DNA of 39,283 nucleotides from NCBI GenBank assembly GCA_964570745.1, contig CAZMZQ010000002.1, positions 1 to 39,283 on the forward strand, in the 5' to 3' direction. The notes under the pieces were generated by a model, which was not told the origin of the DNA, made no database searches, and saw only the letters and a program-made list of their open reading frames with translations. Source of the stretch: an uncultured Anaerolineaceae bacterium. Lineage in GTDB: Bacteria; Chloroflexota; Anaerolineae; Anaerolineales; Anaerolineaceae. Positions 5,005 to 34,376 of this stretch are shown in pieces. The position numbers and the translations under genes were made by a program. Each line of letters starts with the position of its first letter. Positions within the stretch are counted from its first letter, which is position 1.

Positions 5005-5080
5005 TCTTCCTCCTGAAAAATCTATGAAAAAAGATTACCAGTCCGGTATTAGATTGTTGTTAAAATAAAAAGAAAGCAGA

Positions 5081-5620: not shown

Positions 5621-5662
5621 AAAAACTCCTTTTGCACAGAGCTATTATAATTTTAACGAAAG

Positions 5663-8960: not shown

Positions 8961-8980
8961 TTGGCAGAAAGCTGGCAGAT

Positions 8981-10357: not shown

Positions 10358-10358
10358 T

Positions 10359-11042
10359 GTGGCGAACGGTGTGAAAAGTAAATTTTCAGATAAAACGGTC
10401 AGCGTCAACCTTCCAGTCGATTTTTTCAAAGTTGCTTCTGGTTTGAGCCGTGATGCCCTGTTGGTTTTGTTGGGATATTTCCAGTTTATGTCCGAACAGG
10501 AAAGAGACAGCCAGCTTTGCGAAGCTTTCGACCTCGAGAATTATCTACCGGTAGACTGGACAGAAACACAAATCAGTTTTGCGTCAGCTCTGGATGAGCT
10601 TGACCGGGGCGGGGCGCTTTTTGTTTTCAGCAGCCCGGAGACGCCTGAAAGAAAATATCTTTTACCGGGCACTGATGCCGGGGCAAGCCTGCTGCATTCA
10701 CTTCAAGAGCAGCCGTCACTTTTGACAAACCTGTCTTTGGCAACAGCCCTGCCAACACCAGCCAAGCCAAATGTGTTTCGGCTATACGAAGAAAATATCG
10801 GTCCCCTGACCGCTTATTCCGCAGAGTTATTGAGAGATGCAGCGGAAACCTATACTGAGGAATGGCTGGAAGACGCAATCAAAGAAGCTGTGCATTACAA
10901 TGCCCGCAACTGGAAGTATATCCAGGCAATTTTGCGCAATTGGCAGGAAAAAGGACGAAAGAGGAGCAATGAAGAAGATAAACGAGATCTCGAATCCTTT
11001 AGGAAACTCTACCTCGATCAAAAACGAGAGCTCGGTACCTGA
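10359..11042 (+). CDS. DnaD-domain replication initiation / helicase-loading accessory protein
   Basis: C-terminal DnaD/DnaB_2 motif (FRLYEENIGPLT...AVHYNARNWKYIQAILRNWQEKG). Start is uncertain: GTG 10359 or 10371, just after the dnaB stop. The ORF-track start at 10251 overlaps dnaB. Confidence 0.7.
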   Translation: MANGVKSKFSDKTVSVNLPVDFFKVASGLSRDALLVLLGYFQFMSEQERDSQLCEAFDLENYLPVDWTETQISFASALDELDRGGALFVFSSPETPERKYLLPGTDAGASLLHSLQEQPSLLTNLSLATALPTPAKPNVFRLYEENIGPLTAYSAELLRDAAETYTEEWLEDAIKEAVHYNARNWKYIQAILRNWQEKGRKRSNEEDKRDLESFRKLYLDQKRELGT

Positions 11043-12363
11043 AGCTAACCCAGACGTTTCTGAACCGACTCCTACATACTACGGACCGGGAGACCCAAAT
11101 TGTCCGGTTTGTTTTGGGGTTGGTTTTGTCGGCTATGATGTTCCGGTGGAAGATCCGCGTTTCGGACGCAGCGAAATTTGTGTCTGCCGGCTCAGGCAGG
11201 TTCAATCCCAGCAGCAGGATCACCTTTATCAACTCAGCAATCTCGGGGCGCTCAGCGACCTGACATTTGAAAACTTTTTGCCACGCGGAAGGTTTGGTCT
11301 GGGGCTTTCACAGGCGAATTCTTTGGAACAGGCTTATAACACAGCTGTGAATTTTGCTGGTGCACAAACAGGCTGGCTGCTACTCACAGGACGATATGGA
11401 TCAGGCAAAACCCACCTCGCAGCTGCCATCGCCAACCAGTCTGTCAGGATGGGAACTCCCACAATATTTTTGACTGTTCCTGATCTGCTGGACTGGCTGC
11501 GTTTCTCTTTCTCCTCCGGGTCTGATTTGAGCTACGAAGAACGCTTCAACGAAATTCGCAACGCACCTCTGCTGGTTATGGATGATTTTGGCACACAGAG
11601 CACAACCGCCTGGGCAGAAGAAAAACTGTTCCAAATCATCAATTCACGCTATATCAATCATATGCCGACAGTAATCACCAGCAACGTTGATCTTTCCGAA
11701 TTTGAAGGCCGTATTCGCTCACGTTTGAGCGACCCTGAATTGGTAAGTCACGTCCATATCCTGGCACCAGATTTCCGCAATCCGACTGACGAGTTTGGGC
11801 ATCCTGAACTTTCCAGCCTAAACCTGCACTCCCGACAAACTTTTGGCAATTTTAGTTTCAGGCAAAACGAAGGGCTGCCCAAAGAGGATATCACCTCCCT
11901 CTCTGATGCGTTCAAAATCGCACAGGAATTTGCTGAGAATCCGAAAGGCTGGATCAGTATTCACGGCTCTTATGGCTGCGGCAAAACCCACCTGGCTGCC
12001 GCAATCGGCAATTACCAGGCTTCCAGGGGAATGCCGCCTTTATTCGTGGTTGTGCCGGACTTGTTGGATTACCTCAGGGCAGCCTTTGCTCCAAACAGCG
12101 GCATTAGCCTGGATAAGCGCTTTAATGAAATCCGCACAGCGAGACTGCTGATTTTGGATGATCTGGGCACGCAATCTGCCACTCCCTGGGCACGTGAAAA
12201 ACTCTACCAGTTGTTTAATTATCGCTATAATGCTGAGCTCCCCACCGTGGTGACTTCGTCAGCCCTTCCTGATGAACTTGATCAAAGGCTATTCAGCCGG
12301 CTTTCAGACAAACGGTTATGCCGTTTGATCTTTATTTCTGCCCCGGGATACACTGGCAAATGA
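10969..12363 (+). CDS. DnaC/DnaI-like helicase loader with two tandem AAA+ modules and an N-terminal Cys cluster
   Basis: GAGGAG RBS precedes ATG 10969. There are two Walker A sites (GRYGSGKTHLAAAIAN; GSYGCGKTHLAAAIGN) and two Walker B sites (LLVMDDFG; LLILDDLG). The N-terminus carries CPVC...CVC. Confidence 0.85.
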   Translation: MKKINEISNPLGNSTSIKNESSVPEANPDVSEPTPTYYGPGDPNCPVCFGVGFVGYDVPVEDPRFGRSEICVCRLRQVQSQQQDHLYQLSNLGALSDLTFENFLPRGRFGLGLSQANSLEQAYNTAVNFAGAQTGWLLLTGRYGSGKTHLAAAIANQSVRMGTPTIFLTVPDLLDWLRFSFSSGSDLSYEERFNEIRNAPLLVMDDFGTQSTTAWAEEKLFQIINSRYINHMPTVITSNVDLSEFEGRIRSRLSDPELVSHVHILAPDFRNPTDEFGHPELSSLNLHSRQTFGNFSFRQNEGLPKEDITSLSDAFKIAQEFAENPKGWISIHGSYGCGKTHLAAAIGNYQASRGMPPLFVVVPDLLDYLRAAFAPNSGISLDKRFNEIRTARLLILDDLGTQSATPWAREKLYQLFNYRYNAELPTVVTSSALPDELDQRLFSRLSDKRLCRLIFISAPGYTGK

Positions 12364-16407: not shown

Positions 16408-18888
16408 ATGGAAATCGATCCTTCTGAATTTTATTTTGGCAATACTTACGACTTAAAAAACCAGGCTATCATCCCTGATAAACTGACCTATTACAACCCA
16501 CAAGACCTTACAACGCACATGGTGATCACTGGTATGACCGGCTCGGGCAAGACAGGGATGGGGATCATCCTCCTTGAAGAGGCTGCCCTCAAGGGCATCC
16601 CTGCGATCCTGGTTGACCCTAAAGGCGACCTGACTAACCACCTCCTGCATTTTCCGGATTTCTTGCCGGGCGATTTTGAACCCTGGGTGGATGCTGACGC
16701 AGCTAAACGTGAGGGCCAGACGGTAGAGCAGGCGGCTGAAGCTGCTGCTGCTTCCTGGAAAAAGGGCACAGAACGCTCGGGTATTGATAGAACCCGTATG
16801 GAGAAGTTAGCGCAAAGTGTCGATTATGCTGTTTATACCCCTGGCTCCGATTCAGCCATCCCAATCAGCATTCTTTCTTCTCTCAAAGCACCCCAAATCA
16901 GTTGGGACGAAAATAAAGAGATGCTGCGCGAAGCGATCAGCAGTACGGTCACCGCTCTGCTTGGATTGGTCGGTTTTAAAGATATTGACCCGGTACGCTC
17001 ACGCGAACACATCTTGTTATCGAATATTTTCGAACATTCCTGGAGTGACAAAAAAGATCTCGATCTCGAAAGCCTGATTTTGCAGGTGCAAAACCCACCT
17101 TTTGAGAAACTGGGTGTTTTCCCGGTCGCCAAATTTTATCCTGAAAAAGACCGCTTTGATCTGGCAATGCTATTGAACAACTTTATTGCCGCACCCTCAT
17201 TTGAGAGTTGGCTCGAAGGTCAGCCTCTGGATATTCAGAACCTGCTCTATTCCCCGGATGGCAAACCCAGGCACAGTATCTTTTACCTCGCCCACCTGGC
17301 GGATGCAGAGCGGATGTTCTTCATCACCTTGCTTTATTCTGCCATTGAAACCTGGATGCGAACAAAATCTGGCACCAGCGACCTTCGCGCATTGGTCTAT
17401 TTTGACGAGATCGTCGGTTATTTACCGCCGGTTGCCAACCCACCCAGCAAGCCGATCATTCTACGCATGCTCAAACAAGCACGCGCTTTCGGCGTAGGTT
17501 TGGTACTTTCCACTCAAAACCCGATTGACCTGGACTATAAAGCCCTTTCCAATGCCGGCACCTGGGTTATCGGCAAACTGCAAACCGACCAGGACAAGCA
17601 GCGCCTGCTCGACGGGCTTACCAATGTTTCCGGAACTTTCGACCGCCCCTATTTCGACAACACGATCTCCTCGCTTGGAAAACGAGTATTCCTGCTTCAT
17701 AATGTCCACGCCAAAGGTCCCGAGATCTTCACTACCCGCTGGGCGATGAACTATCTGGCTGGTCCGATAACGCGCAACAAGCTGCAGGATCTCAACCGCC
17801 TGGTTGGAGCTGATGTGCGTCTAGTATCAGCCGCGCTTAATGGCTCCGGGCAATCTGTTTCAGCTGCCGATGTGGTTGGCGGAGGCAGTGCAGACCTCCC
17901 CGGGAAATCGACCCAACCGGTGTTGGGCTCGAAGGTTAATGTCTTCTATCTGCCTATCAGATTGAGCCCTGGAGATGCCTACAAGCAGGCAGCCGACCGG
18001 GGTATCGCTCCAACCACACAGCCGCTCTACCACTATCGACCAACCCTGGTTGGGCAAGCTCAGGTCTGGTTTGCAAACCGTACCTACAACGTCAATACTC
18101 AAAAAGGGATAACCGTATTGATACCGGACTTGGAAAACCGTGGACTTGTGCAGTGGCAGGATTACCAGGTTGATGAAATCCAGGCAAATGAATTTGACCG
18201 GGGTCCTTTGCCCGGCGCAACCTTTGCAGACTTGGTCTATCCCTTTACTGACGAGAAGAACGTAAGCAGCTTATCCAGCGATTTTGCTGACTGGCTATAT
18301 CGCAACTACCAGATAACGCTATATCGAAATCCGGATCTTAAACTGGTTTCAGAAGTTGACGAAAGCAAAGAAGATTTTATTGCCCGAACTCAAGTTGCGG
18401 GCAATACCAATCTTTCTGCTGGTGTCGGAGCGATTGAGGAGAAGTATGCGAAGCAAAAGAAGACGATTGAAAACAAGCTGGTCAAAGAAGAATTGGAGCT
18501 TGAAAGAGACAAACAAACTCTCAACCATCGTCGTCTTGAAGAGGCAGGTACGGGACTGCAAACAGTTGTCAGCCTGCTTGGCGGAAGAAAGAAAAGCATA
18601 AGCTCATCTCTCACCAAACGGCGTATGACTGCCACCGCAAAGGAGAATGTCGCAGAATCAGAAGTTATGATCGCACGCTATAAATCCGAACTGGCGGAAC
18701 TGGATGCGAAGATGAAGATTGAAATCGATGAATTTAAGGCCAACGCTGAAGGGAAGGCTGTTGAGCTCCAGGAGATTTTCATCAAGCCGCTTAAAAAGGA
18801 CGTGGTCGTTGAATACTTTGGTCTCGCCTGGGCACCGGTATATGCTTTCAAAGACGGAGACCGCTGGCTCGAAATAGACGCTTTTTAG
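16408..18888 (+). CDS. HerA/FtsK-superfamily P-loop ATPase (DUF853/DUF87-like) with long C-terminal extension
   Basis: Walker A GMTGSGKTG followed by ILVDPKGDL, and Walker B ALVYFDEIVGY, resemble YjgR/HerA-like proteins. The C-terminal ~350 aa include a K/E-rich coiled coil. Confidence 0.75.
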   Translation: MEIDPSEFYFGNTYDLKNQAIIPDKLTYYNPQDLTTHMVITGMTGSGKTGMGIILLEEAALKGIPAILVDPKGDLTNHLLHFPDFLPGDFEPWVDADAAKREGQTVEQAAEAAAASWKKGTERSGIDRTRMEKLAQSVDYAVYTPGSDSAIPISILSSLKAPQISWDENKEMLREAISSTVTALLGLVGFKDIDPVRSREHILLSNIFEHSWSDKKDLDLESLILQVQNPPFEKLGVFPVAKFYPEKDRFDLAMLLNNFIAAPSFESWLEGQPLDIQNLLYSPDGKPRHSIFYLAHLADAERMFFITLLYSAIETWMRTKSGTSDLRALVYFDEIVGYLPPVANPPSKPIILRMLKQARAFGVGLVLSTQNPIDLDYKALSNAGTWVIGKLQTDQDKQRLLDGLTNVSGTFDRPYFDNTISSLGKRVFLLHNVHAKGPEIFTTRWAMNYLAGPITRNKLQDLNRLVGADVRLVSAALNGSGQSVSAADVVGGGSADLPGKSTQPVLGSKVNVFYLPIRLSPGDAYKQAADRGIAPTTQPLYHYRPTLVGQAQVWFANRTYNVNTQKGITVLIPDLENRGLVQWQDYQVDEIQANEFDRGPLPGATFADLVYPFTDEKNVSSLSSDFADWLYRNYQITLYRNPDLKLVSEVDESKEDFIARTQVAGNTNLSAGVGAIEEKYAKQKKTIENKLVKEELELERDKQTLNHRRLEEAGTGLQTVVSLLGGRKKSISSSLTKRRMTATAKENVAESEVMIARYKSELAELDAKMKIEIDEFKANAEGKAVELQEIFIKPLKKDVVVEYFGLAWAPVYAFKDGDRWLEIDAF

Positions 18889-19843: not shown

Positions 19844-19911
19844 AATTTTCCTCCGTTAAGGATTTGTAAGGATGAAAAGTATAGCACATTCATTGATTGA
19901 GTATAAATCAA

Positions 19912-21462
19912 TCATAAAAGCTTTTGATCTATCGATGCTACGGTATAGATCGAATTTTTTCCCAAATTGTGACCGTGATTGGCTGCCTGATTGTTATTAA
20001 GCAGACATCTGCCATTGGTAAAATCAAAACTCAATCCATGAATATAAACCGGTTGATCCTGCGAAGTGTGAAGCCATTGCCCGACCGCATGCCAAAACGC
20101 TTTTAGTGGCTGGCCGAATCGGTCCTTAATCGATTCATCTTCGTCGAGATAGAATTGTGCTTCTTTACTTTTCGGTCTCTGCCAAATCTCAATCCTTCTG
20201 GAAGGGCTAACCATTGAGCACAACGGCTGCACACCCACATTGCCTTGTTCGATCAGGTCAAAAAGGGTTTGCAAACAGGTTTTTCCCTGACCGTAGAAAA
20301 GCGGGAGCATCGATTCATGCATCAAACTGGTATCAACACCGTTCAAAAACTGACCACCAAATTCAACAAGATCAATTATTTGCTGCCTGTGATCTCTGCG
20401 ACCGACGATCTGAAAAAGCAAATCTGCCCTCGGGCTGCGGGAAGACCAGCCGGTTGAATTTTGTAATAAAAGGGTGCCATCTTCAAAGCCCGCATTTTCG
20501 TCAAGCCCAAGCCAATAACAATTCCCGTTATTAACCGACCCGCTGCGCTCCACTACCAACCAATATCGTTCGCCAACTTCAAGCTCCGCATTACCGGGCA
20601 GGTTTACTTCAACCCATCGGTAGGTTTCAACATTCAATTCAGATGGAGATACGGTTGTATTGGTCAATATCAAGCCAGATGGTTGATTGCCAAGATCGGT
20701 TTGAATGCTGACCTTGAGATTGTCTGCGGGCATACCCTGTCTGCGTACACGGAGTGAAGCTGAAAACGCCTGGATGGGACTGTTGACTACGAAAGATTGT
20801 GCCAGGCGCAAGTTGGATGTGCTCTGCCCAACTGGTTGGGTTCCAAGTTGAGCTGGTCGGTGTTCCACGATTCCATTCCACCCCTGCCAGTAACGCCACG
20901 CAAGCGTTTCCATCCAACTTCGGCAGTTCAAAACATAACCTTCATCTTGAAGCCGACCTGTGAGCTTTCCTTTCAAAGCAACTTTCGGCTGTGAATGAGC
21001 GGACAACCAGTCACCAACGAGTAAATCTGCTACCTGACCATGCATAAATTGTCTCTGCAGGAGCTGTTCCTTTATTCCATAAACCTCCTGGCTCTCTGGG
21101 TCGTCTTTCCATTGGGTTTGTTGAAAAACAAAAGGCTCTGAATCGGTTGGCAGCAAATAACGCACAGCCACCCGGTTTGCCATGCTATCCAAACCAAGAT
21201 TAAAAACCTGATTTCCTCTCATTTGATCCACTGATTCGAGGAAGCCCCACCAGGCAAGTCGCCCTTCCGGGTCGTAAACTCGTATATCCTGCCCCAGACA
21301 GATACGCCAATCTTGCAAAGTCATCCCGCCACACGGACAAAATACCCGTGCCTGGCTGGGACCGTAACGGTCATTCCATTCAAGGTTAAGCGGAAGGCAG
21401 TCTTCCGGAGAAAATATAAATTTGCCAGCCTGACGGTTGAGAATTTCGAAAGCCCAGCTCAT
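19912..21462 (-). CDS. Hypothetical phage-associated protein (516 aa; possible tail/adsorption component)
   Basis: GGAGG RBS and ATGA start/stop overlap with the upstream gene. It is the last gene of the phage-like operon. No motif recognised. Confidence 0.5.
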   Translation of the reverse strand: MSWAFEILNRQAGKFIFSPEDCLPLNLEWNDRYGPSQARVFCPCGGMTLQDWRICLGQDIRVYDPEGRLAWWGFLESVDQMRGNQVFNLGLDSMANRVAVRYLLPTDSEPFVFQQTQWKDDPESQEVYGIKEQLLQRQFMHGQVADLLVGDWLSAHSQPKVALKGKLTGRLQDEGYVLNCRSWMETLAWRYWQGWNGIVEHRPAQLGTQPVGQSTSNLRLAQSFVVNSPIQAFSASLRVRRQGMPADNLKVSIQTDLGNQPSGLILTNTTVSPSELNVETYRWVEVNLPGNAELEVGERYWLVVERSGSVNNGNCYWLGLDENAGFEDGTLLLQNSTGWSSRSPRADLLFQIVGRRDHRQQIIDLVEFGGQFLNGVDTSLMHESMLPLFYGQGKTCLQTLFDLIEQGNVGVQPLCSMVSPSRRIEIWQRPKSKEAQFYLDEDESIKDRFGQPLKAFWHAVGQWLHTSQDQPVYIHGLSFDFTNGRCLLNNNQAANHGHNLGKNSIYTVASIDQKLL

Positions 21463-22790
21463 GGTAACCTCCAATGTTTGCGAATCCATGCCCTTATCTT
21501 CAACGTCCGTTCGATCGGTGCGCCATTTGCATCTGTTTGAAAAAGCCAGAAGTGCTGCTTGTGAGACGGATTGATCGACAGAGGTTCACCCATCCTTCGG
21601 TGGGTTTTAATCTCCAGCCCCTGTTTTATTGACCAACTCGTTTTCAACATTCCATCTACGACCAACCGGGACTGATGAGGCAAACCGCTGATACTATGAA
21701 AGACACTGAAAGGCTCATGGGGCAACAATAAAATGTCATCCAGATTAAGTGTGTGTCTACCAGTAGCCGTATGTTTCGCCTGCAAAACCAATTGATGCGA
21801 GTATGCATAGTTCACCAGGGGCAGGCTGCCTATAGGTAAATTGAACGGTTCCAACACCACAAAACCACTGCCATTTTCCACCTCTGTTTCAGGGCTCTGC
21901 CAGACTATATTGTTATCCACAGCGATTTGAAGGCGTAAATAAAGCGGTCCGCCACTTACCTGGCTGAACAGGCGTAAAATCGGTGTGCAGGTGCGTTTGC
22001 GCAGCTGACTCACCTCAACCGGACCAATTGTCCAGGCTGCCAGGTTTGTCCACGATGAGCCAGACCATTCATAATAGACATATTTCCCTCCGGATGCAAG
22101 CGAAGAGGTCAGTGCAGACCCTCCTGATCCGCCTTCTGCTTCAAGGTTAAGCATCGCCCGGCTATCAAACTCTGTGTCTGCCAAACCGCCCACCCATAAA
22201 TTTGACAGGCTGTCACCAGCAAAAGTGTTTTCAAGTTCCATCCGCAGGGACGCTGGCTGGATCAAATCAAGCGCCGCGGTATCAATGGTGAACCAGTTAT
22301 CATGACCAGGCTGGTTATCGTCGTGGTTATAAATTGTCAGCCCGTTGGTAATCCCTCCGCCGGAAGAATTGGATAATGGTAGCGGTTGTTCAGAGCCAAA
22401 AAAGCTGTTTTCACGTTGAATAAGCAGGTGAAGCTGTATTGAACCAGCCTTGTGCGATGCCAGCTGCCCGCTGGCTATTTCAAGCCTTCCGCTTTGTATC
22501 AGGCTGTAAAGATAAGCCGATTGATCTTCGCTCCAAATTCGCAGCACCAGTGGCATGTAGGAAAAATCCGTTCCCGTCCTGAGGAGTGATTCCAGGTTAT
22601 CGATAATTGAACGGATTTTTGTTTTGGAACCGCGAAGGTTCAGGGTCAGCTTCTCTTCCACCAGTGGTTCAAGGCTCGGATTCAATCCATATTCCGTACT
22701 GATCAATCCCATGGGCTGGTCGGCACTCTGCAGCACAAACCACGAACCCTCGTCAGGTCTGCCCAGGTTTCCGATTGCGAGATCACTCAT
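21459..22790 (-). CDS. Hypothetical phage-associated protein (443 aa)
   Basis: 8-nt overlap with the upstream gene. Function inferred from operon position only. Confidence 0.5.
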   Translation of the reverse strand: MSDLAIGNLGRPDEGSWFVLQSADQPMGLISTEYGLNPSLEPLVEEKLTLNLRGSKTKIRSIIDNLESLLRTGTDFSYMPLVLRIWSEDQSAYLYSLIQSGRLEIASGQLASHKAGSIQLHLLIQRENSFFGSEQPLPLSNSSGGGITNGLTIYNHDDNQPGHDNWFTIDTAALDLIQPASLRMELENTFAGDSLSNLWVGGLADTEFDSRAMLNLEAEGGSGGSALTSSLASGGKYVYYEWSGSSWTNLAAWTIGPVEVSQLRKRTCTPILRLFSQVSGGPLYLRLQIAVDNNIVWQSPETEVENGSGFVVLEPFNLPIGSLPLVNYAYSHQLVLQAKHTATGRHTLNLDDILLLPHEPFSVFHSISGLPHQSRLVVDGMLKTSWSIKQGLEIKTHRRMGEPLSINPSHKQHFWLFQTDANGAPIERTLKIRAWIRKHWRLP

Positions 22791-23208
22791 AAGACCGATG
22801 CTCCTCTAATTTCCATGCTGCCCACGGTGTGTTTGAGCCATTGTGTAAACTTGCGATCCGCAGCCTGTCCAGCAGATGGTCACGTTCCTGGATGAGATAG
22901 CGCACCCAGGCAGCCAGCGCGTTTGAATCAAGGTTGAGGTTACTGTAACTGACCTGGTGGTGCTGCAAAACCGCCTTGATGACACTGGCAGCGGCACCTC
23001 TCATCAGGGCTGGAAGAAATTCATCCGGCAGGCTGGTGAGTTCTGCAGAATCCAAACCAGCGAGGGTGTAGTTTTCACAAAAAAGACCGTTGATATACCC
23101 GATTGACTCCCTGAAAGCTTCTAACTTAAGCGGTAATTCAATCGCAAGTTGATACGGATCCAAAAATTGTTGTTCCAGGCTCGCAACCAGGTCATCCAGA
23201 TGTGTCAT
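22783..23208 (-). CDS. Hypothetical phage-associated protein (141 aa; possible head-tail adaptor)
   Basis: ATG 23208 is preceded by AAGGGAG. Size and position after the capsid gene fit a connector/adaptor. No motif support. Confidence 0.4.
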   Translation of the reverse strand: MTHLDDLVASLEQQFLDPYQLAIELPLKLEAFRESIGYINGLFCENYTLAGLDSAELTSLPDEFLPALMRGAAASVIKAVLQHHQVSYSNLNLDSNALAAWVRYLIQERDHLLDRLRIASLHNGSNTPWAAWKLEEHRSYE

Positions 23209-23389
23209 TAGAAGCTCCCTTCTTGTGACCAAGACTCTTGAAAGCCTTTTCAACTTCTCCTGCAGAAAAAGTTACTTTCCATCCCCGGTTGTTAATCACC
23301 ACCAGGAAACCGTCCTCACGCAGTCTCCGACTGAGCACATCTTTACCCATAAGTTTGTTTACTACTCTTTTTATTTCTCTGTCAGTCAT
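23192..23389 (-). CDS. Small hypothetical protein (65 aa)
   Basis: Strong AAGGAGGTAAAA-ATG initiation region, basic N-terminus. Confidence 0.5.
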   Translation of the reverse strand: MTDREIKRVVNKLMGKDVLSRRLREDGFLVVINNRGWKVTFSAGEVEKAFKSLGHKKGASNDTSG

Positions 23390-23400
23390 TTTTACCTCCT

Positions 23401-23434
23401 TGCCTGCCCCTTCACGCTTGTGAAGAGGCAGGCA
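23401..23434 (-). other. Strong intra-operon RNA stem-loop (15-bp stem, 4-nt loop)
   Basis: TGCCTGCCCCTTCAC-GCTT-GTGAAGAGGCAGGCA, with a single G-U position. It abuts the RBS of the 65-aa ORF. No U-tract. Confidence 0.6.
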
Positions 23435-23444
23435 GCAAATTGGT

Positions 23445-23636
23445 TTAGGAATCAGCCCTCAGTCCATCTTCTAGGGCAGTGCCCAGGATATAGGTGACCA
23501 GAATTGCGATAATTCCGGCGAGCTGGTCTGGGTCGATCGGGAAGTCGGGGTACCAGACTTTGACCATCATGATGATCAAGCCAACCAGGGCAGCCCAAAA
23601 CTTACGCGAACTCAACAGAAATTTCAATTTTGTCAT
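23445..23636 (-). CDS. Holin-like small membrane protein (63 aa, 2 TM)
   Basis: GAGGAG RBS before ATG 23636. Basic N-terminus, two hydrophobic helices (FWAALVGLIIMMVKVW; LAGIIAILVTYILGTAL) and a charged C-terminus. Confidence 0.5.
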   Translation of the reverse strand: MTKLKFLLSSRKFWAALVGLIIMMVKVWYPDFPIDPDQLAGIIAILVTYILGTALEDGLRADS

Positions 23637-23650
23637 CTCTCTCCTCAGAA

Positions 23651-25603
23651 TCAAGCAACGTTATTCTTGTAAAGCGGTCGGAAGTCGTTCACCCAGACCG
23701 CCAGATAATGGCGAACCTTCAGACGGTGTTCGTCATTGCTAAACACTGCCGGCGAAAGCTCATCACCGGCAATAAAGATCTCAGGTGCAATTCCAAACCG
23801 TTCTCCCACGAAAATAGCCGGGGCAACGCGGGGATCACATACTGCCGCCCAGTCGTTGGCATCGGTCCATTCCGGCACTACAAGTGGCACCGCGCTGCCT
23901 TTGAGCACGTTGTCATAGACATAATCTGCCTCGCGCACAAAGCTGCCAGTACAAATTTCCATGGCGGTGCGTTGTAATGCCCGTGGTACCAGGAGAAACT
24001 TGGGGTTCACCGCCATCTGGGGACCACTGCCGAAAAATCCCGCAGCGTTTTTTACCAACATAGGTTGGGCGTAAACCCTGGCGCTGACAACATCCCAATT
24101 GCCTGCATTCAGAGCCAGGTTCGCCAGGTTGGCATGCCCACCTTTGACTGTGACAGCTTCCAGGTTGAACAAGTTCTCCTCATCAGCCAGGATTGGTCCG
24201 ACGCCAGCTTCGCTTGTGAATATCTCTGCAACCAGGCGGGAAATTTTCCGCATTCCTGCAGAAGCCAGCTCACGGGCATAGGCGCGCAGCTTACGGGTTT
24301 CGTCACGGTCGATCAGCTCAAGCGTCAGGGGGATATAACCACCAAATTTGGTAAACCTGGCAACTTCGGGAGAATCGCCTACCTTTAGCTCAGTGTAATT
24401 ACCGCCTTCAGCGATGCTGGGCAGGTCACCCACCGTGCCGATCAGCGTGCCGGTGATATCATGCAGGCTGTTAAAATGCTCCTGAACGGTTACATTCTTC
24501 CACCAGTCGTAGCCAGCTTTTCCCAACTCTTCCCAGGTGTTGCTAACCAGTTTGTTCAGGCTGTTCTTAACCAGTCCAGTGAAATCGGCTGTGGTCGCAA
24601 GCCTGGTTCGTTCGAGAAAATAACCACCATGCAGGTCATAATCACCGGTCAATGTGAGATAAAGCTCACGAATACCCGAAAGTCTGGCGACCTGGGTATT
24701 ACCAATTCCTTTTTCGCGGGGTGCGTCAAATAGATCGTCCACAGCAGCCTGCAATCGTTCCGCAGGCTCCAGCATCCCTTCAATTCGGGCTGGACCTTTG
24801 ACCACGCTCGCGCCCTCCAAATCGCTGAGCAGTGTGTGGGCTTCGCGAAGTGCTGCCTGGAGCTCTGCCGGTGCGAAGGTGCGGTTTTGAAACCGTTTTC
24901 GGATATTGGTCTTCAGCCCTTGAGGCAGATTAGAGTTTGAAAGGCTGTTTTCCAGCAAAAAAGCGCTCATTTGCGCACGCATGTTTCGCATTTCCGCCAA
25001 CTGGTCTTCCAGGCTGCCTGCTTCCGGCAGTGGCTGAACTTCCGCTTCCTGAAGCGCGAGATTTGTTTCGATACTATTCTCCTTAAATTGTGTAGACATA
25101 AAGGGTTCTCCTTCCATAATTGGCTTGATTCCAAGTTGATTGAGTGCCCGCAGGAAAATACCACCCCGGGCAGGGTTGTAGACCAGGTCCACCGAGTAGA
25201 TCCGCAGGATCTTCCCGACTTTGCCAGCCTTACCCTGAAAGAGCACGTCTGCTGAAAAACCCACCCTGACAGCAGGTTCGTCCGACTTTTCGAGCACCTG
25301 GCGTCCGATATCCTTGAGCACTTCAGCTGAAGGACCAAAAGCGCTCAATTCAGCCCGCACTCCACACGCTTCAGCATCCCAGGTTGGTTTTCGCAAGATT
25401 CCGGCGATATCGCGTACGGAACGTTCCTTGAGACTATGGTCAACAAAGCAATTGACCCCTTCCCAAAGTTGCAGGGAATCCCTGAGCACTTCCGCAGGGA
25501 ACACCCAACCATTGGCTGACCCGGCTGTGATTGCCAGTATCTCGAAGCGACCACTACCGACCGGGTTGACCTCCAATGCCAGCCGTTGTCGACTTTCAGT
25601 CAT
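23651..25603 (-). CDS. Prohead protease-like / scaffold-like / HK97-fold major capsid protein fusion (650 aa)
   Basis: GGAAGGAG RBS before ATG 25603. The N-terminal ~170 aa have protease-like H and S contexts (CFVDH; VGFSADV). The middle is a helical A/L/E/Q-rich segment. The C-terminal ~300 aa look like a major capsid protein. The gene follows the portal gene. Confidence 0.55.
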   Translation of the reverse strand: MTESRQRLALEVNPVGSGRFEILAITAGSANGWVFPAEVLRDSLQLWEGVNCFVDHSLKERSVRDIAGILRKPTWDAEACGVRAELSAFGPSAEVLKDIGRQVLEKSDEPAVRVGFSADVLFQGKAGKVGKILRIYSVDLVYNPARGGIFLRALNQLGIKPIMEGEPFMSTQFKENSIETNLALQEAEVQPLPEAGSLEDQLAEMRNMRAQMSAFLLENSLSNSNLPQGLKTNIRKRFQNRTFAPAELQAALREAHTLLSDLEGASVVKGPARIEGMLEPAERLQAAVDDLFDAPREKGIGNTQVARLSGIRELYLTLTGDYDLHGGYFLERTRLATTADFTGLVKNSLNKLVSNTWEELGKAGYDWWKNVTVQEHFNSLHDITGTLIGTVGDLPSIAEGGNYTELKVGDSPEVARFTKFGGYIPLTLELIDRDETRKLRAYARELASAGMRKISRLVAEIFTSEAGVGPILADEENLFNLEAVTVKGGHANLANLALNAGNWDVVSARVYAQPMLVKNAAGFFGSGPQMAVNPKFLLVPRALQRTAMEICTGSFVREADYVYDNVLKGSAVPLVVPEWTDANDWAAVCDPRVAPAIFVGERFGIAPEIFIAGDELSPAVFSNDEHRLKVRHYLAVWVNDFRPLYKNNVA

Positions 25604-25682
25604 AAATCTCCTTCCATTTTGATTGATGCCCTGTTTCAAACTAATTGCCTGCCCCACGCTGGGCAATTGGTTGAAGTTATTC

Positions 25683-26999
25683 TTATTCGCCATCTGAACC
25701 AGATTGGTCAGGAACGCGTTCACCCATAAAGCGATAAACCAGGCGCAGATATTCCCGCTCATCAATCAAACCATGCTCAAGCAAGCCGGCAGCCACTTCG
25801 TGAATCTGTACGCCTGCCTGTGCCAATTCGCGATTGTCACGGGCACTGACGTCACCACCTTCAACGCTTATTTGAACATCCGGATTGATATGAGGGTCGT
25901 ATAAAGCGCGTCTTGAAACGACTACGCGCAAGATCGTTTCGACCATGGCACACAAAAAACGCTGCCGCTCTGAGAAACGCCGGTAGGTTGGGCTTCCAGC
26001 TGCTTCAGCAGTCGTCTTTGTAGACGATTCTGGCTCTGCCAGGAAATGCAGGGGCAGCCCCACCCCGGCAGCGATCATCTTTTTAATCGCCAGACCGTCG
26101 CTGGATGCGTCAAGCGCTTCCAGTTTAGGTGCCAGCACTGACCACTCTTCACTTTCATCAGTCACTAAAACCGAACCAGGCGCGGGTGGATTGGCAGCCA
26201 ATTGCAGTTGGCGGGAATAACGTTCGTTTTCGCTGCCAAAGCGTGCCTTGACTACATAGACAAAGGCATTCCGAAAGCGATTTAACCTTACCCGGTCTTC
26301 AAGCCAGGCACTGTAGCGGGAAAGCCATTTCAAAACCGGCGTCAGGTCTCCTTCACCCCACTGCGAGCCGCTTGGTCTGTTGATGGCAAAGTGAAGCATA
26401 ACTTCCGGCAAGCGATTGTGCATATCCATCTCTTCATTACGAGGGTCATATGCCTGGCAAATCAGGGGCTCGGTATTACCAGGTTGCCTGATGTGATATG
26501 CCAGCTCCTGCTCAATGTCGTTTTCCCGCGATTGAATTTGCAGCACATCAGCCGCGGGGACGATGCGCAGATAGGTCATACCGCTTTGATCGCTGCTGAG
26601 CATCAAAAACAAATTTCCGCTCAGGCAGAGCTCGTCACTAAACTGGTTGATCTTCTGATCCAACAGGTTAAGCCTGTGCTGCCAGAATTCTGTGATAAAC
26701 GCCTGGGTTGGCTTGTCTGAACAGGTTACTACCATCCCACCGCCAGCTGCATATTGGGTAGTCAGTTCAACGATTCGTCTCGCAACAGGGTTAAATCGCC
26801 AGGCATCCAGGCTGTCAAGCATGATTTTCTGCCGGTCATATACCTGGCGGTCACGCGGAAGACTGAAAGCAGGCTGCGCCCCCACTAAAAAGTTGTTTTC
26901 AGTTTCAACCTGGCTCAGTCCAAGCCGCTGATTGCTTTCCAGTTTTTCGTCAGCTAGTTGAAAAAAGGCTTGCAAGCGTTCTTTGAATGAAAAGCTCAT
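25683..26999 (-). CDS. Phage portal protein
   Basis: The 438-aa size and position between terminase and capsid fit a portal, and the general portal-like sequence character agrees (e.g. DAWRFNPVARRIVELTTQY). ATGA overlap with the lysozyme gene. Confidence 0.6.
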   Translation of the reverse strand: MSFSFKERLQAFFQLADEKLESNQRLGLSQVETENNFLVGAQPAFSLPRDRQVYDRQKIMLDSLDAWRFNPVARRIVELTTQYAAGGGMVVTCSDKPTQAFITEFWQHRLNLLDQKINQFSDELCLSGNLFLMLSSDQSGMTYLRIVPAADVLQIQSRENDIEQELAYHIRQPGNTEPLICQAYDPRNEEMDMHNRLPEVMLHFAINRPSGSQWGEGDLTPVLKWLSRYSAWLEDRVRLNRFRNAFVYVVKARFGSENERYSRQLQLAANPPAPGSVLVTDESEEWSVLAPKLEALDASSDGLAIKKMIAAGVGLPLHFLAEPESSTKTTAEAAGSPTYRRFSERQRFLCAMVETILRVVVSRRALYDPHINPDVQISVEGGDVSARDNRELAQAGVQIHEVAAGLLEHGLIDEREYLRLVYRFMGERVPDQSGSDGE

Positions 27000-27790
27000 G
27001 CAGACACTTCCTCCAAAACCATTGCGGGTTTAAGTATTTGAGCGGCACGCTCACAGGCTTTGGAATCCAAAGGACAAATTGCTCCCCCAGTTTTACCCTT
27101 GCCAAAATAAGCCCAAAGCTGCTCCAGGCTCCCGTTCCAACGGTTGTAATCCATATAGCGCCCAACGCCGCCAATGGCTGGGGCACGCTGGCTGGTTTGG
27201 TGGATCAACCACTGACGCACGCCTTTGGGCAACTGGGGAGGGCAGGGATATTCAGGGGTGAATTGAGGAGCATCGTAGCTGCGGATATATTGCGCCAACC
27301 ACCAGTCCAGACTAGGCAGGCTGGCTACATCAAGGTGTTCATTTATCCACGACGCCCGGGAATAAACAATCGGGTATCGCCCGGTGACACTAAACAGATA
27401 ACACAGGCACTGAGTGAGCATGTTCGTGATCTGAACACGGGACTTCCCCTGATCGAGTTCAAGGTCCAGCACGAGTCGGACCTGCTCCAGGTCGACATCT
27501 TTGAGAATGGTCAAAAATGCTTCCATTTGTCGGATCGGGTCTGCGGATGGATAGACCACATGGTAGGGTAAAATACACACCCCGATGCGGGACGCCTCTT
27601 CAAAAAAGCGCTGGAACATGCTGTCGCGATAGCCCCAGGAAATACCGGTGCGTATGGATACAAACCGTATTGCCGGTACGTGGGCTTGAAATTGGTCAAA
27701 ATCGGGGATTTGCCTGCCATCCCAGCTGGCATTATGCTGGGAAAGGTCGATCCCGAACGGGTAGCCCTGATTACGGGTAAAGTAAGTCAC
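26996..27790 (-). CDS. GH25 muramidase (endolysin-type lysozyme)
   Basis: GIDLSQHN catalytic-region motif, a TIM-barrel-like pattern, and a C-terminal HQTSQ..GGVGRYMDYNRWNGS resembling the GH25 WQYS..G.vDlN motif. GTG 27790 is preceded by GGAGG and overlaps the upstream TAG. Confidence 0.75.
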   Translation of the reverse strand: MTYFTRNQGYPFGIDLSQHNASWDGRQIPDFDQFQAHVPAIRFVSIRTGISWGYRDSMFQRFFEEASRIGVCILPYHVVYPSADPIRQMEAFLTILKDVDLEQVRLVLDLELDQGKSRVQITNMLTQCLCYLFSVTGRYPIVYSRASWINEHLDVASLPSLDWWLAQYIRSYDAPQFTPEYPCPPQLPKGVRQWLIHQTSQRAPAIGGVGRYMDYNRWNGSLEQLWAYFGKGKTGGAICPLDSKACERAAQILKPAMVLEEVSA

Positions 27791-28011
27791 TAAAAACCTC
27801 CATCCATTTCTTTGAGTGGGTCTGATGCTTGAATTAGTGCAGGGGTAAAGCTTGGTTTCCAATCAAGTTCGTCCAAAATTGCAGTCATGGCAGCCGAGAT
27901 GACCAGGTCATCATGCAGCAAACCGCCCATTGGATCTGGTGTGCCTTCGGGGACCCACCATTTCATACTCTTATCCGGTCCGATTCCAACCTCACAGCTG
28001 AGCGCTTGCAA
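27790..28011 (-). CDS. Detached C-terminal fragment of terminase large subunit (in frame with upstream ORF, separated by TAA)
   Basis: Contains WWVP...LLHDDLVISAAM, the last acidic nuclease motif of TerL. It has only a TTG start, no RBS, and shares the frame of 28030-29490. Confidence 0.65.
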   Translation of the reverse strand: MQALSCEVGIGPDKSMKWWVPEGTPDPMGGLLHDDLVISAAMTAILDELDWKPSFTPALIQASDPLKEMDGGF

Positions 28012-28029
28012 TTGGCGTTGGAAAAGGTA

Positions 28030-29490
28030 TTAAAGCTGGTCCTGTTCGTTTGCCATTTGGATCGCCAGCGGGTTCAGCGCGCCTGCCTCGGTGTGTGCAG
28101 GCTGCGATGGTCGGAAATCCTGAAATCTACCGGTATCAACTACCGCTAAAAACCCCCAACCGAGGCGGGATTTTAGCTGCTGGTTGAAGACCAGGGGAAT
28201 CACACGTTCGTCCAGTTTGTCGCGTAAAAATGAGCACACACCAGCACCAATCCCGCTGGCGTCTACGACAACCTTTTGGCAAGCCCACTGCTGTGCCAGG
28301 TGGTAGAGTCTTTGGTAGAGTGTGCTGTGACGTTCTCCCTGCCAGAGATAACGCTGTACCACCTGGTAGCGTGGTTTTCCTACGAGGTCGTCATCCAGGA
28401 GGCTCAGGTCTATCTCAACGATGGTCACCGCGGTTGAATCTCTTCCCGGGTTTTGAAGGTTGTTTACCTCCGCTGAAACAAAGCCTTCTTTCCTGGCTTG
28501 TTCATCTTCCCCCGCAATGTCAACCAGCATGGCATACTGCTTGCCCGGTTGAGGATGCTTGCAGGCAGAGTGGTTTCCCTGCATCAGGCTCAGACGTGCC
28601 GGGGTGAAAAGACCACCCGAAAAGTCGATCTCTTCGCTAAAGAATTGTGAGCGCACCATTGGATGCGAACGCCCCAGCCGGGCGATCTGTTCATCGACAA
28701 ACAAGCCATAGGCGGGCACCTCGCGCCTGACTTCTTCGGCTCCGATGCGAAAGACACGCCTGATGCCATCCCGGGCTTCAGCTTCACGGGCTGCCCTCAG
28801 CTCTCGTGCCAACAGGGTTTGCCCGGTCCAGGCAGTCCCCCAAAAAACGCGGGTTGCGTTGGTGGAGGCCGCCATCGGTGCAATTTGCTTGTCGTACTTC
28901 GAAACAGAGATATCCTGGGCTTCATCCAGAGCGAGCATCGTCGAAGCAGTCGCTCCGACAATGTTTGAACCGGGGGCAGCGGAAAGAAAGGTGAGATGAG
29001 CATTTTTAAAGCGGTAATGGTTGCCAGCACTTTTTTGCCATTGGTTGTGGGTCAGATAATTTTGCTGGAGGGCTGTCTCAAGCCGGCGCATGGCGTTCAG
29101 GCTTTGCGGTTGGTAGGTCGGTGAAAGCTTGACCATTTCCGCCCCCTGCTGCCCTAATAAGCTCATCAGGTAAACTTCCAGCTGTGCCTGGAGCATGTTT
29201 TTACCCGATTGCCTGGGAAACATGACCACAAACGAGAGCCCTTTTTGCTCCATGATCGATTTCACAATCGCCCTGGCTGCTTCAGCTTGATAACTGCGCA
29301 GATTCACACTTCCAAAGATATGACTGAAGTTATCGATGCTGCGCAGCCGGCGTAAAAATTCCACCCTGGTTTCCTTGCGTTTCAATTGATTAGTTTTGCC
29401 TGGTTCAACAGGGTTTTGACCCTGAGGTATCGATAAGAAAAGGCGGGTTGGTTGACAGAGGTTAGTCTGTTTGATCATGCTTAATTCCAT
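28030..29490 (-). CDS. Terminase large subunit (truncated by in-frame TAA at 28030-28032)
   Basis: Walker A-like FPRQSGKN, Walker B MLALDEAQDI, nuclease motifs MLVDIAGEDE and VVVDASGIGAGV. Start chosen at ATG 29490 after GGAGGAG. Confidence 0.85.
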   Translation of the reverse strand: MELSMIKQTNLCQPTRLFLSIPQGQNPVEPGKTNQLKRKETRVEFLRRLRSIDNFSHIFGSVNLRSYQAEAARAIVKSIMEQKGLSFVVMFPRQSGKNMLQAQLEVYLMSLLGQQGAEMVKLSPTYQPQSLNAMRRLETALQQNYLTHNQWQKSAGNHYRFKNAHLTFLSAAPGSNIVGATASTMLALDEAQDISVSKYDKQIAPMAASTNATRVFWGTAWTGQTLLARELRAAREAEARDGIRRVFRIGAEEVRREVPAYGLFVDEQIARLGRSHPMVRSQFFSEEIDFSGGLFTPARLSLMQGNHSACKHPQPGKQYAMLVDIAGEDEQARKEGFVSAEVNNLQNPGRDSTAVTIVEIDLSLLDDDLVGKPRYQVVQRYLWQGERHSTLYQRLYHLAQQWACQKVVVDASGIGAGVCSFLRDKLDERVIPLVFNQQLKSRLGWGFLAVVDTGRFQDFRPSQPAHTEAGALNPLAIQMANEQDQL

Positions 29491-29941
29491 AGCTCTCCTC
29501 CACATCTTCCAGAAAAATACTGATTGCTTCCAGCAGTTCACCAGAGACATTTTGAATGGTGTCACCGGTCAGTCCGGCATGAACGCGCATCATGTTTGCC
29601 AACCGGCTGCAGGTTAAACCCAGTAGGTCCACCGTTTTGGCGAGATTTGCCGGATATTCTTTTTCTCCGCCTTCATCAGCAGCATTTGCGAATTGTTTCA
29701 ATACTTTACGTATCAGCTCGATTTCTTCAGCCAGTCCGAGTTTTATGGATTCGGAGAGTTGCAGCCTTTCTGCACTGGTCAAACCGCAATCGCCGTATCC
29801 CAAAATTTCGTAACGGGCATCAATCAGCGATTCCCGTTCCTCAAGCGCAGCAGCGACCTTCACACCGCTGCCCGCCTTTGAAGGGCGGGCAGGGTGGAGG
29901 ACCTGCGACTGTGCAATTAAAGTGGGGTTTTTTTGTGGCAT
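29462..29941 (-). CDS. Hypothetical protein at the position of a small terminase subunit
   Basis: First gene of the operon, 159 aa, GAGGAG RBS, overlaps the TerL start. Function is inferred from position only. Confidence 0.4.
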   Translation of the reverse strand: MPQKNPTLIAQSQVLHPARPSKAGSGVKVAAALEERESLIDARYEILGYGDCGLTSAERLQLSESIKLGLAEEIELIRKVLKQFANAADEGGEKEYPANLAKTVDLLGLTCSRLANMMRVHAGLTGDTIQNVSGELLEAISIFLEDVEESYGIKHDQTD

Positions 29942-29960
29942 CGTTCGCTTCTCCTCATTT

Positions 29961-29978
29961 TTAGAACGTTTGTTCTAA
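29961..29978. promoter_or_regulatory. Putative LexA (SOS/Cheo-type) operator TTAGAAC-GTTT-GTTCTAA
   Basis: Perfect 7+7 inverted repeat containing AGAAC-N4-GTTCT. It lies 20-37 nt upstream of the operon's first ATG, between a -10-like TACACT (29988-29993, minus strand) and the RBS. Confidence 0.6.
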
Positions 29979-30109
29979 TCAAGGATAAGTGTAGCGCATT
30001 TTTTAAAAAAGAAAAGAGGGGAAAACACGAAAAAGAGGGGGTAAAAAAGTGGAAAAATGGTAATTTTGTTGTGGTAACATTATCAATATTGATCATTACC
30101 GGAGGTTAG

Positions 30110-34317: not shown

Positions 34318-34346
34318 TTGACAAATGGACTTCCAATAACGATAAT
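34318..34346 (+). promoter_or_regulatory. Near-consensus sigma-70 promoter (TTGACA-17-GATAAT)
   Basis: TTGACA at 34318-34323, exact 17-nt spacer, GATAAT at 34341-34346. It sits 30 nt upstream of GTG 34377, which has an AGGAAGG RBS. Confidence 0.7.
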
Positions 34347-34376
34347 AGATCATATGTTCTATATCAGGAAGGTGAA

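Follow-up and report, generated by a model that had tools for sequence, protein, structure and literature searches.

A probable SOS-controlled, gene transfer agent-like operon of domesticated phage origin in Anaerolineaceae

Few independently domesticated gene transfer agents (GTAs) are known, and what is understood of them comes mostly from one alphaproteobacterial system, RcGTA of Rhodobacter capsulatus, the production of which requires LexA. PBSX of Bacillus subtilis is SOS-inducible, packages host DNA and lyses its producer, its late operon being driven by the small sigma-like protein Xpf. VSH-1 of Brachyspira hyodysenteriae is mitomycin C-inducible, and a region of about 16 kb contains the modules for its head, tail and lysis. 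No VSH-1-type or other independent GTA from Chloroflexota was reported in the literature searched, and no description of a GTA or of a conserved phage-like element in Anaerolineae or Chloroflexi was found in full-text literature. Here we describe a ten-gene, phage-derived cluster in a stretch of 39,283 nucleotides from an uncultured Anaerolineaceae bacterium (GCA_964570745.1, contig CAZMZQ010000002.1, positions 1 to 39,283), referred to as the window. In order of transcription, the genes encode a protein in the position of a small terminase subunit (g01), the large terminase subunit (TerL), a GH25 muramidase, a portal, a protease/scaffold/capsid fusion (g06), a holin-like protein (g07), two small proteins (g08 and g09) and two proteins with folds of phage tail tips (g10 and g11). 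We consider it probable, with moderate confidence, that the cluster is a vertically inherited, SOS-controlled, GTA-like domesticated phage operon of Anaerolineaceae, which forms a particle and lysis system and is not a prophage. That it is a vertically inherited, domesticated element under selection is very probable.

A preliminary description of this DNA, made from the letters and a list of open reading frames (ORFs), had pointed to a logic similar to that of GTAs. In agreement with this, the cluster is chromosomal, vertically inherited and selected, has no mobility genes, and is closest in logic to RcGTA. Both are fixed, phage-derived sets of head, packaging and tail genes of 10-15 kb that are inherited vertically under purifying selection. 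Genes for integrase, replication and repressor are missing from both, and both have a slightly raised GC content and encode Dit (distal tail) and hub-type tip proteins. The link to host stress regulation and the release by holin and endolysin known from RcGTA are predicted for the cluster. On the other hand, the two have no detectable sequence relationship and belong to different host phyla. The cluster comprises 10 genes with protease, scaffold and capsid fused, compared with about 17 genes in RcGTA, where protease and capsid are separate and a tail tube, a tape measure and a megatron are encoded; its lysis genes lie inside the operon and not in a separate lysis locus; and genes for tail tube, tape measure, terminator and head spike are absent from it. 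An apparent direct operator is found at its promoter, whereas RcGTA is governed by CtrA, GafA and quorum sensing. The fused protease/capsid, the lack of any tube or tape-measure family and the location in Chloroflexota set the cluster apart from alphaproteobacterial homologues of RcGTA.

PBSX and PBSZ of B. subtilis are likewise SOS-type chromosomal phage-like elements with lysis functions, the system described here being known from its genes alone. The likeness extends to Xpf, in that a neighbouring sigma-region-4/LuxR-like gene, orf142, lies behind the same type of operator as the cluster. However, PBSX spans ~28 kb, encodes a complete contractile tail as well as an Xre repressor of its own, and occurs only in a few closely allied species, whereas the cluster is 10 kb long, has no sheath, tube or repressor and is family-wide. 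Nor does it look like a PBSX-like defective myovirus or tailocin, as sheath and tube families are missing and only Dit-like and baseplate-like folds occur. VSH-1, Dd1, VTA and BaGTA are also small host-encoded phage-like particle systems, but consist of other gene families in other hosts, and VSH-1 has a recognisable long tail. Capsid-forming phage-inducible chromosomal islands (cf-PICIs) resemble the cluster in having their own terminase, portal, protease, capsid and connector genes and no tail tube. They are mobile, helper-dependent and patchy in distribution and carry an integrase, AlpA, a replication module and attachment (att) sites, whereas none of these were found in the cluster, which occupies a fixed orthologous site and has its own lysis and tip genes. 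An encapsulin is not indicated either, with portal and TerL both present and conserved. The g06 protein is a bona fide member of the Phage_capsid_4 fusion family (PF25209; PHROG 4523, 133); the family members of cultured phages are at most 25% identical to it, the nearest reaching this value, while the Anaerolineaceae proteins form a tight group with 55-100% identity.

Relatives of the cluster were collected in a scan of one genome per GTDB species. It gave 226 matching stretches, from which 80 loci in 80 different assemblies were kept, with ~10 kb covered on each side of the cluster in any genome. The kept loci are mostly metagenome-assembled genomes (MAGs) of Anaerolineaceae, plus Brevefilum, Candidatus Mesolinea and the isolate Anaerolinea thermolimosa IMO-1. 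Gene order, determined by tblastn with the window proteins, is identical in most of the 80 species-representative genomes, over identity ranges of 55-87% for the capsid, 42-84% for TerL, 46-84% for the portal, 40-96% for the holin and 45-82% for GH25. The chromosomal slot is the same in ~35-40 species, in the order MFS, orf334, orf284, YgjP, (PNPOx), the cluster, 0 to 6 kb of host genes, and DegV. In the window, the host genes on the DegV side encode DegV, a HerA-like ATPase, a HAD hydrolase, a glucan phosphorylase and DnaB, and those on the opposite side a PNPOx-like protein, YgjP, an MFS transporter, an MGDG-synthase-like glycosyltransferase, a ferredoxin and PadR. Where DegV lies 4-6 kb away from g11, the genes in between encode a PfkB kinase, DUF4153, GH1 and DUF218 proteins and a serpin; that they could provide further phage functions was considered and rejected, all of them being host genes. 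Integration at a tRNA or att site was likewise rejected as the cause of the shared slot, as no tRNA was found within 19 kb and no direct (att) repeats bracket the cluster.

The cluster has diverged together with its neighbourhood. Among 42 genomes (861 pairs), the pairwise identities of capsid and DegV correlate with a Pearson/Mantel r of 0.87, a value that 0 of 999 permutations reached, and at deep divergence the capsid is better conserved than DegV. The ratio of nonsynonymous to synonymous substitution rates (dN/dS), determined by the Nei-Gojobori method (NG86) on up to 40 pairs with a capsid dS <0.7, is lowest for TerL, portal and capsid and highest for g01 (Table 1), with holin, GH25 and g09 at 0.08-0.09 and g10 and g11 at 0.14-0.16. 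The adjacent host gene DegV has a ratio of 0.086 at similar dS (about 0.6 vs 0.57). Searched against Pfam, 139 flanking ORFs of 25 diverse loci matched families of host metabolism, and no phage family recurred among them. Two Phage_integrase matches were obtained that are not assignable to loci; ten candidate ORFs encode RecT, MatE, an IS110 transposase or an antitoxin, or are unidentified. As in a GTA, phage-like structural, packaging and release genes thus sit within the host chromosome, the cluster and ~10 kb on each side hold no integration/excision, replication or immunity module, and slot, Mantel correlation and dN/dS point to clade-wide vertical inheritance with purifying selection. The marks of a temperate prophage, namely an integrase, att sites, a repressor or Cro and replication genes, were not found in the cluster or its flanks, and the genes are conserved and selected across species. 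The earlier proposal of a domesticated element instead of a prophage, for which a comparison of the locus across relatives had been suggested, is supported by these data: the gene order is kept, TerL is intact in 67 of 68 loci, dN/dS ranges over 0.07-0.19, the operator described below is conserved in 65 of 71 loci, and next to the cluster there is no integrase, repressor or tail module, the two integrase matches among the 139 ORFs notwithstanding.

The ten genes form a single minus-strand operon. An ATGA at 26996-26999 joins the GH25 stop to the portal start, a second one at 21459-21462 joins the g10 stop to the g11 start (Met10 of the ORF, the start seen in homologues), and a TAGTG at 27788-27792 contains the TerL stop and the GTG start of GH25. 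Further overlaps lie at 22783-22790, at 23192-23208, where g09 starts at a near-invariant Met16, and at 29462-29490, with the TerL ATG at 29490. ORFs, strand and overlaps had been listed in the preliminary description and were all found again in the sequence. Its count of eleven ORFs reduces to 10 genes, since the 73-aa third ORF is the C-terminal end of TerL. The four proteins that it left without a function lose this severed piece, and g10 and g11, which were also among them, have Dit-like and baseplate/central-fibre-like folds. The products that it did name, TerL, GH25, portal, protease/scaffold/capsid fusion and holin, were matched by Pfam or PHROG, the TerS being assigned by position only. 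With Pfam and PHROG, no match to integrase, repressor, replication, tube, sheath or tape-measure families was obtained in the cluster or its immediate flanks, as had been stated; the accompanying remark that no baseplate was recognisable needs some amendment, given the tail-tip folds of g10 and g11. The GC content, judged by eye to be raised, is modestly so, with 51.0% in the cluster vs 47.0% and 45.8% in the flanks and a third-position value (GC3) of 0.52 vs 0.48.

Table 1. Features of the operon and of orf142, in positions of the window
Feature	Position	Strand	Evidence or context	dN/dS
Whole operon, 10 genes	19912-29941	minus	translationally coupled ORF string with few gaps	
orf142, 142 aa, C-terminal GerE/LuxR or sigma-region-4-like helix-turn-helix	34377-34805	+	Pfam 3e-8; phage 'sigma factor' PHROG 2e-10	
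Extended -10-like element TGCGCTACACT of predicted operon promoter	29988-29998	-	alignment of 15 upstream regions	
Palindromic operator TAGAACAAACGTTCTA, LexA/Cheo-box type, GAAC-N4-GTTC core	29962-29977		20 nt 5' of g01 ATG	
Ribosome binding site GAGGAG for g01	29951-29956	-	kept in 15/15 aligned upstream regions	
g01, 159 aa, helical, small-terminase position	29462-29941	-	same position in most loci	0.19
TerL, ~566 codons if read through	27790-29490	-	PHROG terminase matches; in-frame TAA 28030-28032	0.07
GH25 muramidase (endolysin)	26996-27790	-	Pfam Glyco_hydro_25 PF01183 1.4e-17; PHROG endolysin 3.8e-17	0.09
Portal	25683-26999	-	phrog_10963 2.4e-32	0.07
g06, 650 aa, prohead-protease-like N-domain, helical scaffold-like linker and HK97-fold major capsid	23651-25603	-		0.07
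g07, ~63-69 aa, holin-like, two transmembrane helices	23445-23654	-	phrog_9987 holin 3.8e-4	0.08
g08, 65 aa	23192-23389	-	tblastn-detectable in ~25 loci	
g09, ~141 aa, helical	22783-23208	-	conserved position	0.09
g10, 443 aa, Dit-like with jelly-roll/carbohydrate-binding module (CBM)-like domains	21459-22790	-	AlphaFold2 and Foldseek	0.14
g11, 516 aa, baseplate/central-fibre (Tal or receptor-binding)-like, last operon gene	19912-21462	-	AlphaFold2 and Foldseek	0.16

Upstream of g01, a putative operon promoter is deduced from conservation. A generic sigma-70 scan missed it, and only the alignment of upstream regions from several species revealed it. The consensus of the 15 aligned regions consists of TTGACC, a spacer of 17 or 18 nt, TGCTAnACT, the operator ~10 nt later, GAGGAG and ATG; in the window copy the -35 element is degenerate. 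The succession of promoter and then operator is the classical layout for repression by occlusion. The SOS-type operator that had been proposed here is a real palindrome, TAGAACAAACGTTCTA, and the sole exact GAAC-N4-GTTC in the 39-kb window. Considering the 71 loci whose sequence includes the upstream region, 65 have a box with no more than one mismatch to TAGAAC-N4-GTTCTA at the equivalent place, compared with a background expectation of 0.066 per region, and the box is retained even where the capsid identity is 49-50%. A LexA motif of the form GAAC-N4-GTTC has been shown for Dehalococcoides (Chloroflexi). The same motif is that of LexA in Gram-positive bacteria (PMC3323433). As expected for a member of a LexA regulon, the operator matches this motif and is placed next to the predicted promoter, both features being conserved, which would fit host control as in a GTA.

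A metagenome scan was performed with the consensus 16-mer TAGAACATATGTTCTA, from which the window box differs in the N4 spacer. The 16-mer is found directly 5' of a LexA homologue (JGI name 'repressor LexA'), where two boxes stand in tandem. In metagenomic contigs it also precedes a second LexA-like gene, a recA 59% identical to E. coli RecA, two orf142 homologues and four RecA-like genes that are 29-31% identical to E. coli RecA and in our own reading may be of the ImuA type. It also occurs 243 nt 5' of another TerL homologue with 36% identity (L226). The contigs with the box before lexA, recA and RecA-like genes include L276 (~8860-9505, reverse strand), L177 (4890-6039), L231 and L248. Neither lexA nor recA was found in the window and the 164 fetched loci. 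These observations make LexA control of the operon a well-supported prediction, the binding of LexA itself being presumed.

The same type of box is found at orf142, which is located ~4.4 kb upstream of the cluster in conserved synteny. Its promoter, TTGACA-17-GATAAT, carries the box TAGATCATATGTTCTA at 34346-34361, and its homologues in at least 22 species have a near-perfect TAGAA[CT]ATATGTTCTA at the equivalent place. The protein may activate the operon in the manner of Xpf, may itself bind the box, or may be the product of a further SOS gene.

The packaging genes begin with g01, for which no match was obtained in Pfam, PHROG or PDB; from its gene position it is the putative TerS. TerL matches four PHROGs (2e-5 to 7e-4) that cover the N-terminal ATPase and the C-terminal nuclease parts, and contains FPRQSGKN and MLALDE as Walker A and Walker B motifs, which are of the types found in T4 gp17. 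In the window, the ORFs 28030-29565 and 27790-28011 share a frame and are separated only by the TAA at 28030-28032. As TerL is one uninterrupted ORF (roughly 510-670 aa) in 67 of the 68 related loci, the two parts belong to one TerL gene and the total is 10 genes. The TAA aligns with a conserved Gln (CAG or CAA in relatives) and removes part of the nuclease domain. The 79 codons past it are ~92% identical to the closest relative (L005) and carry a conserved HDD-type motif, as expected at the end of the terminase nuclease domain. Since these codons are still conserved, the lesion appears to be a very recent mutation, a variant within the population or an assembly error. The TerL-truncated copy of this genome may be defective for packaging, unless the TAA is an assembly error or a minority allele.

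The start of g06 at Met55 of its ORF is in line with the 650-aa homologues. Residues ~334-650 match Pfam Phage_capsid_4 (PF25209) with 6.5e-25, and the protein also matches the PHROGs 'major head and protease protein' and 'head maturation protease'. The N-terminal 160 aa give a weak match to the protease phrog_15531 (0.005) and, by tblastn, 28% identity to the capsid maturation protease of Brevibacterium phage LuckyBarnes (2e-4). As no Pfam match was obtained for the N-terminal 250 aa, the protease assignment is based on these weak PHROG and tblastn matches. For g08, PHROG and other family searches gave no match; in more distant loci a small ORF of 63-75 aa takes its position, and it is possibly a head-tail joining or head-completion protein. 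No informative match in Pfam, PHROG or PDB was found for g09, a candidate head-tail adaptor from its position between the head genes and the Dit-like gene. Sequence and profile searches of the PDB yielded no usable match for g10, g09, g01, portal, TerL or the capsid-fusion alignment. Downstream of g06, the holin-like g07 shows two hydrophobic segments in its sequence.

For the two last genes of the operon, confident structures were modelled with AlphaFold2 from homologue alignments, with predicted local distance difference test (pLDDT) values of 84 for g10 and 86 for g11. Against BFVD, Foldseek aligned the g10 model with entries named 'Distal tail protein', 'Siphovirus-type tail component' and 'Minor tail protein' (E 1e-16 to 1e-7, best template modelling (TM) score 0.54), and against the PDB only with jelly-roll and carbohydrate-binding folds. 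This pattern of matches is that of a Dit with an inserted binding domain. The g11 model has baseplate chains of the staphylococcal phage phi812 as its top matches in the PDB (1e-7 to 5e-6) and also matches the central fibre gp20 of mycobacteriophage Douge, the E range over both being 1e-7 to 8e-4. These matches are at the level of domains only (TM ~0.2), and a profile match to the DUF4815 protein of phi812 is marginal (E 0.007). With identities of 22-66%, g11 is one of the two fastest-evolving genes, the other being g10 (22-71%), and only g01 has a higher dN/dS. In siphovirus tail tips, the usual gene order is Dit followed by the hub/fibre protein. Between the head genes and g10, only the 65-aa g08 and the ~141-aa helical g09 are found, with no terminator, tube, chaperone or tape measure. 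A Dit-like g10 followed by a baseplate/fibre-like g11 suggests that a stub tail tip is encoded, and a particle with a stub tail is more probable than a tailless one.

From these components a course of events can be proposed. A repressor, most likely LexA, would sit on the TAGAAC-N4-GTTCTA operator just 3' of the -10 element and hold the operon off, and DNA damage would lift the repression in some cells. The g06 fusion would then assemble on the portal into proheads and process itself, the terminase of g01 and TerL would load DNA into the heads, and g08 and g09 would seal and adapt the portal. The g10 ring and the hub/fibre-like g11 would make up a short tube-less tip for adsorption, and the g07 holin together with the GH25 muramidase would lyse the producer and free the particles. 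As the cluster lacks replication, integration and immunity genes and occupies a fixed site, such particles could not spread the element in the manner of a virus; without self-propagation, their cargo would most likely be host DNA, as in a GTA. Particles of a GTA take up more or less random host DNA, in pieces shorter than the whole encoding cluster, and pass it to recipient cells. Whether the system transfers DNA is a point on which we lean slightly to the negative. We put forward only tentatively that it represents an independent sixth GTA lineage, a 10-gene LexA-switched operon with small heads, a tube-less tip, packaged host DNA and its own lysis, by which damaged cells of these filamentous bacteria would be sacrificed so that pieces of their genome reach kin.

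Several points weigh against a GTA-like, SOS-controlled operon. We know the system from its genes alone and infer its particles and cargo. The assignments of TerS, adaptor and protease are based on position or weak matches, and the window's own TerL has a nonsense codon. The box-bearing lexA and recA contigs are metagenomic and not known Anaerolineaceae promoters; because they lack a taxon and the loci include no Anaerolineaceae lexA promoter, we infer LexA control, and orf142 could be the protein that binds the operator instead of LexA. Genes for tube, tape measure and terminator could sit elsewhere in the genome. Some RcGTA genes, for instance, lie outside the main cluster, and as only ~10 kb were viewed on each side, the term tube-less remains unproven. 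The co-divergence was determined relative to DegV, which is a physically linked gene and not a genome phylogeny. Finally, in a minority of loci (L001, L003, L029, L035) the cluster is found at other sites, from which it follows that relocation or occasional transfer occurs.

Four other explanations of the cluster were considered. It may be an SOS-triggered lysis or killer-particle system without gene transfer, serving as a bacteriocin-like weapon, to rid the filament altruistically of its damaged cells or to supply extracellular DNA (eDNA), with any packaging being incidental. The strongly conserved holin and GH25 genes inside the operon and the SOS-type operator would fit such a role, and PBSX-like elements are a precedent for bacteriocin-like particles. 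However, TerL, the portal and the gene in the TerS position are under purifying selection as strong as that on the capsid (dN/dS 0.07), which indicates that DNA packaging matters; Anaerolinea-type variants have kept the head and packaging genes without GH25, and for lysis alone some 8 kb coding for head and tail would be superfluous. We therefore regard this explanation as rather unlikely. A helper-dependent satellite of the cf-PICI type would form its own capsids, package itself and obtain tails from a helper phage or another locus. Head and packaging genes without tube or tape measure, the classification of cluster fragments as viral in IMG/VR and the RecT gene beside the cluster in two loci (L107 and L150) are in line with this, but the cluster and its flanks have no integrase, primase/replicase, AlpA-type regulator or att repeats, and the cluster brings its own lysis, Dit and tail-tip genes. 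The orthologous slot in dozens of species, the co-divergence with DegV at host-like rates and the origin of the 80 kept loci from 80 different assemblies further argue against mobility, and a mobile satellite is unlikely, with a slight chance at best.

The two remaining explanations are still less probable. The remnant of an ordinary prophage, decaying in a group of related genomes, could account for the nonsense codon in the window's TerL, for a few loci with short or split ORF calls and for a GC content slightly above that of the flanks. Against this stand ten genes kept in order at a capsid identity of only 55-60%, a dN/dS of 0.07-0.19 for every gene, the intact TerL in 67 of 68 loci and the conserved promoter and operator. 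Neutral decay would have erased the ORFs at such a divergence, and we consider a decaying prophage very improbable and in practice ruled out. A very small functional tailed virus, temperate or chronic, could rely on host-supplied functions and use the same target site in many species. The set of head, packaging, tail-tip and lysis genes in 10 kb looks complete, and there are thousands of related capsid fusions (2199 representatives at E<=1e-3). But no recombinase, replication initiator or immunity gene was found in the cluster or its flanks, the cluster co-diverges with the adjacent host gene, and the matches in the viral collection are mostly short fragments, with no complete genome among the few longer ones inspected, so that such a virus is highly improbable.

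If the cluster is indeed a GTA-like operon, Chloroflexota would become a new phylum of GTA hosts, and the operon would show to what extent the morphogenesis of tailed phages can be reduced, namely to 10 genes with a fused protease/scaffold/capsid and without tube or tape measure. With a single promoter and a single operator, its regulation would make a simple model. It would be an ancient, family-wide trait of organisms that dominate anaerobic digesters and sediments, and would matter for gene flow, for lysis and for the release of eDNA among the filamentous bacteria dominating the digesters. As a cultured carrier exists in A. thermolimosa IMO-1 (L081), the hypothesis can be put to a direct test.

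More than 1,296 homologues of the capsid fusion are present in a protein collection clustered at 90%. The top 120 are 57-100% identical, and all named proteins among them are labelled Anaerolineaceae or Chloroflexi. At E<=1e-30 the wider fusion-capsid family has 323 representatives. IMG/VR contains 146 matches, mostly fragments of 4-15 kb (loci L085-L164), and none of the few longer hits inspected was recognised as a complete genome. These 'viral' contigs are pieces of the host-resident operon, systematic false viral calls in anaerobic-digester and sediment metagenomes, which would explain a recurrent false positive in viral catalogues.

Variants of the operon occur. The Anaerolinea type (L081-L084) lacks GH25 and has two extra ORFs, of 167 aa after the capsid gene and of 365 aa between g10 and g11; in the cultured A. 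thermolimosa IMO-1 (L081 5782-16764) the flanks encode RecR, a HerA-like ATPase, an IS200-like transposase and PolA. One of the copies at another site (L003) is without an adjacent terminase. In a distant relative with 49% capsid identity (L163), a longer string of genes follows downstream, in which PHROGs recognised only a holin, so that the ancestral tail could not be reconstructed from this locus.

In two IMG/VR contigs with capsids ~53-59% identical, L107 (4738-5960) and L150 (~3191), a RecT gene is divergent from the cluster, with a TAGAA-N-TTCTA box in between, and in L107 no TerL is recognisable beside the portal. These RecT-linked copies may represent another version of the element or an ancestral one. 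Two MAGs labelled 'Syntrophobacterales' (L036, LUZZ01000129) and 'Ignavibacteriales' (L076, PWXV01000126) carry an Anaerolineaceae-type cluster with a capsid identity of 54-73%, and the former also has the canonical PNPOx, YgjP and orf284 flanks; both are most likely binning contaminants.

Two features of the neighbouring host genes may be added. In the region 8981-12363 (plus strand) of the window, the gene of the DnaB helicase (8981-10357) precedes that of a 508-aa protein in which an IstB/DnaC-like AAA+ module is combined with a DnaA-ATPase-like one, apparently an unusual tandem protein of the helicase-loader kind. An 826-aa HerA/TrwB-like P-loop ATPase (16408-18888, plus strand) adjoins DegV here and in L005, L006, L015 and L078, and a homologue with 42-45% identity is found across the other side of the cluster in A. 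thermolimosa (L081 3287-5797) and in L083 (~3068-5641).

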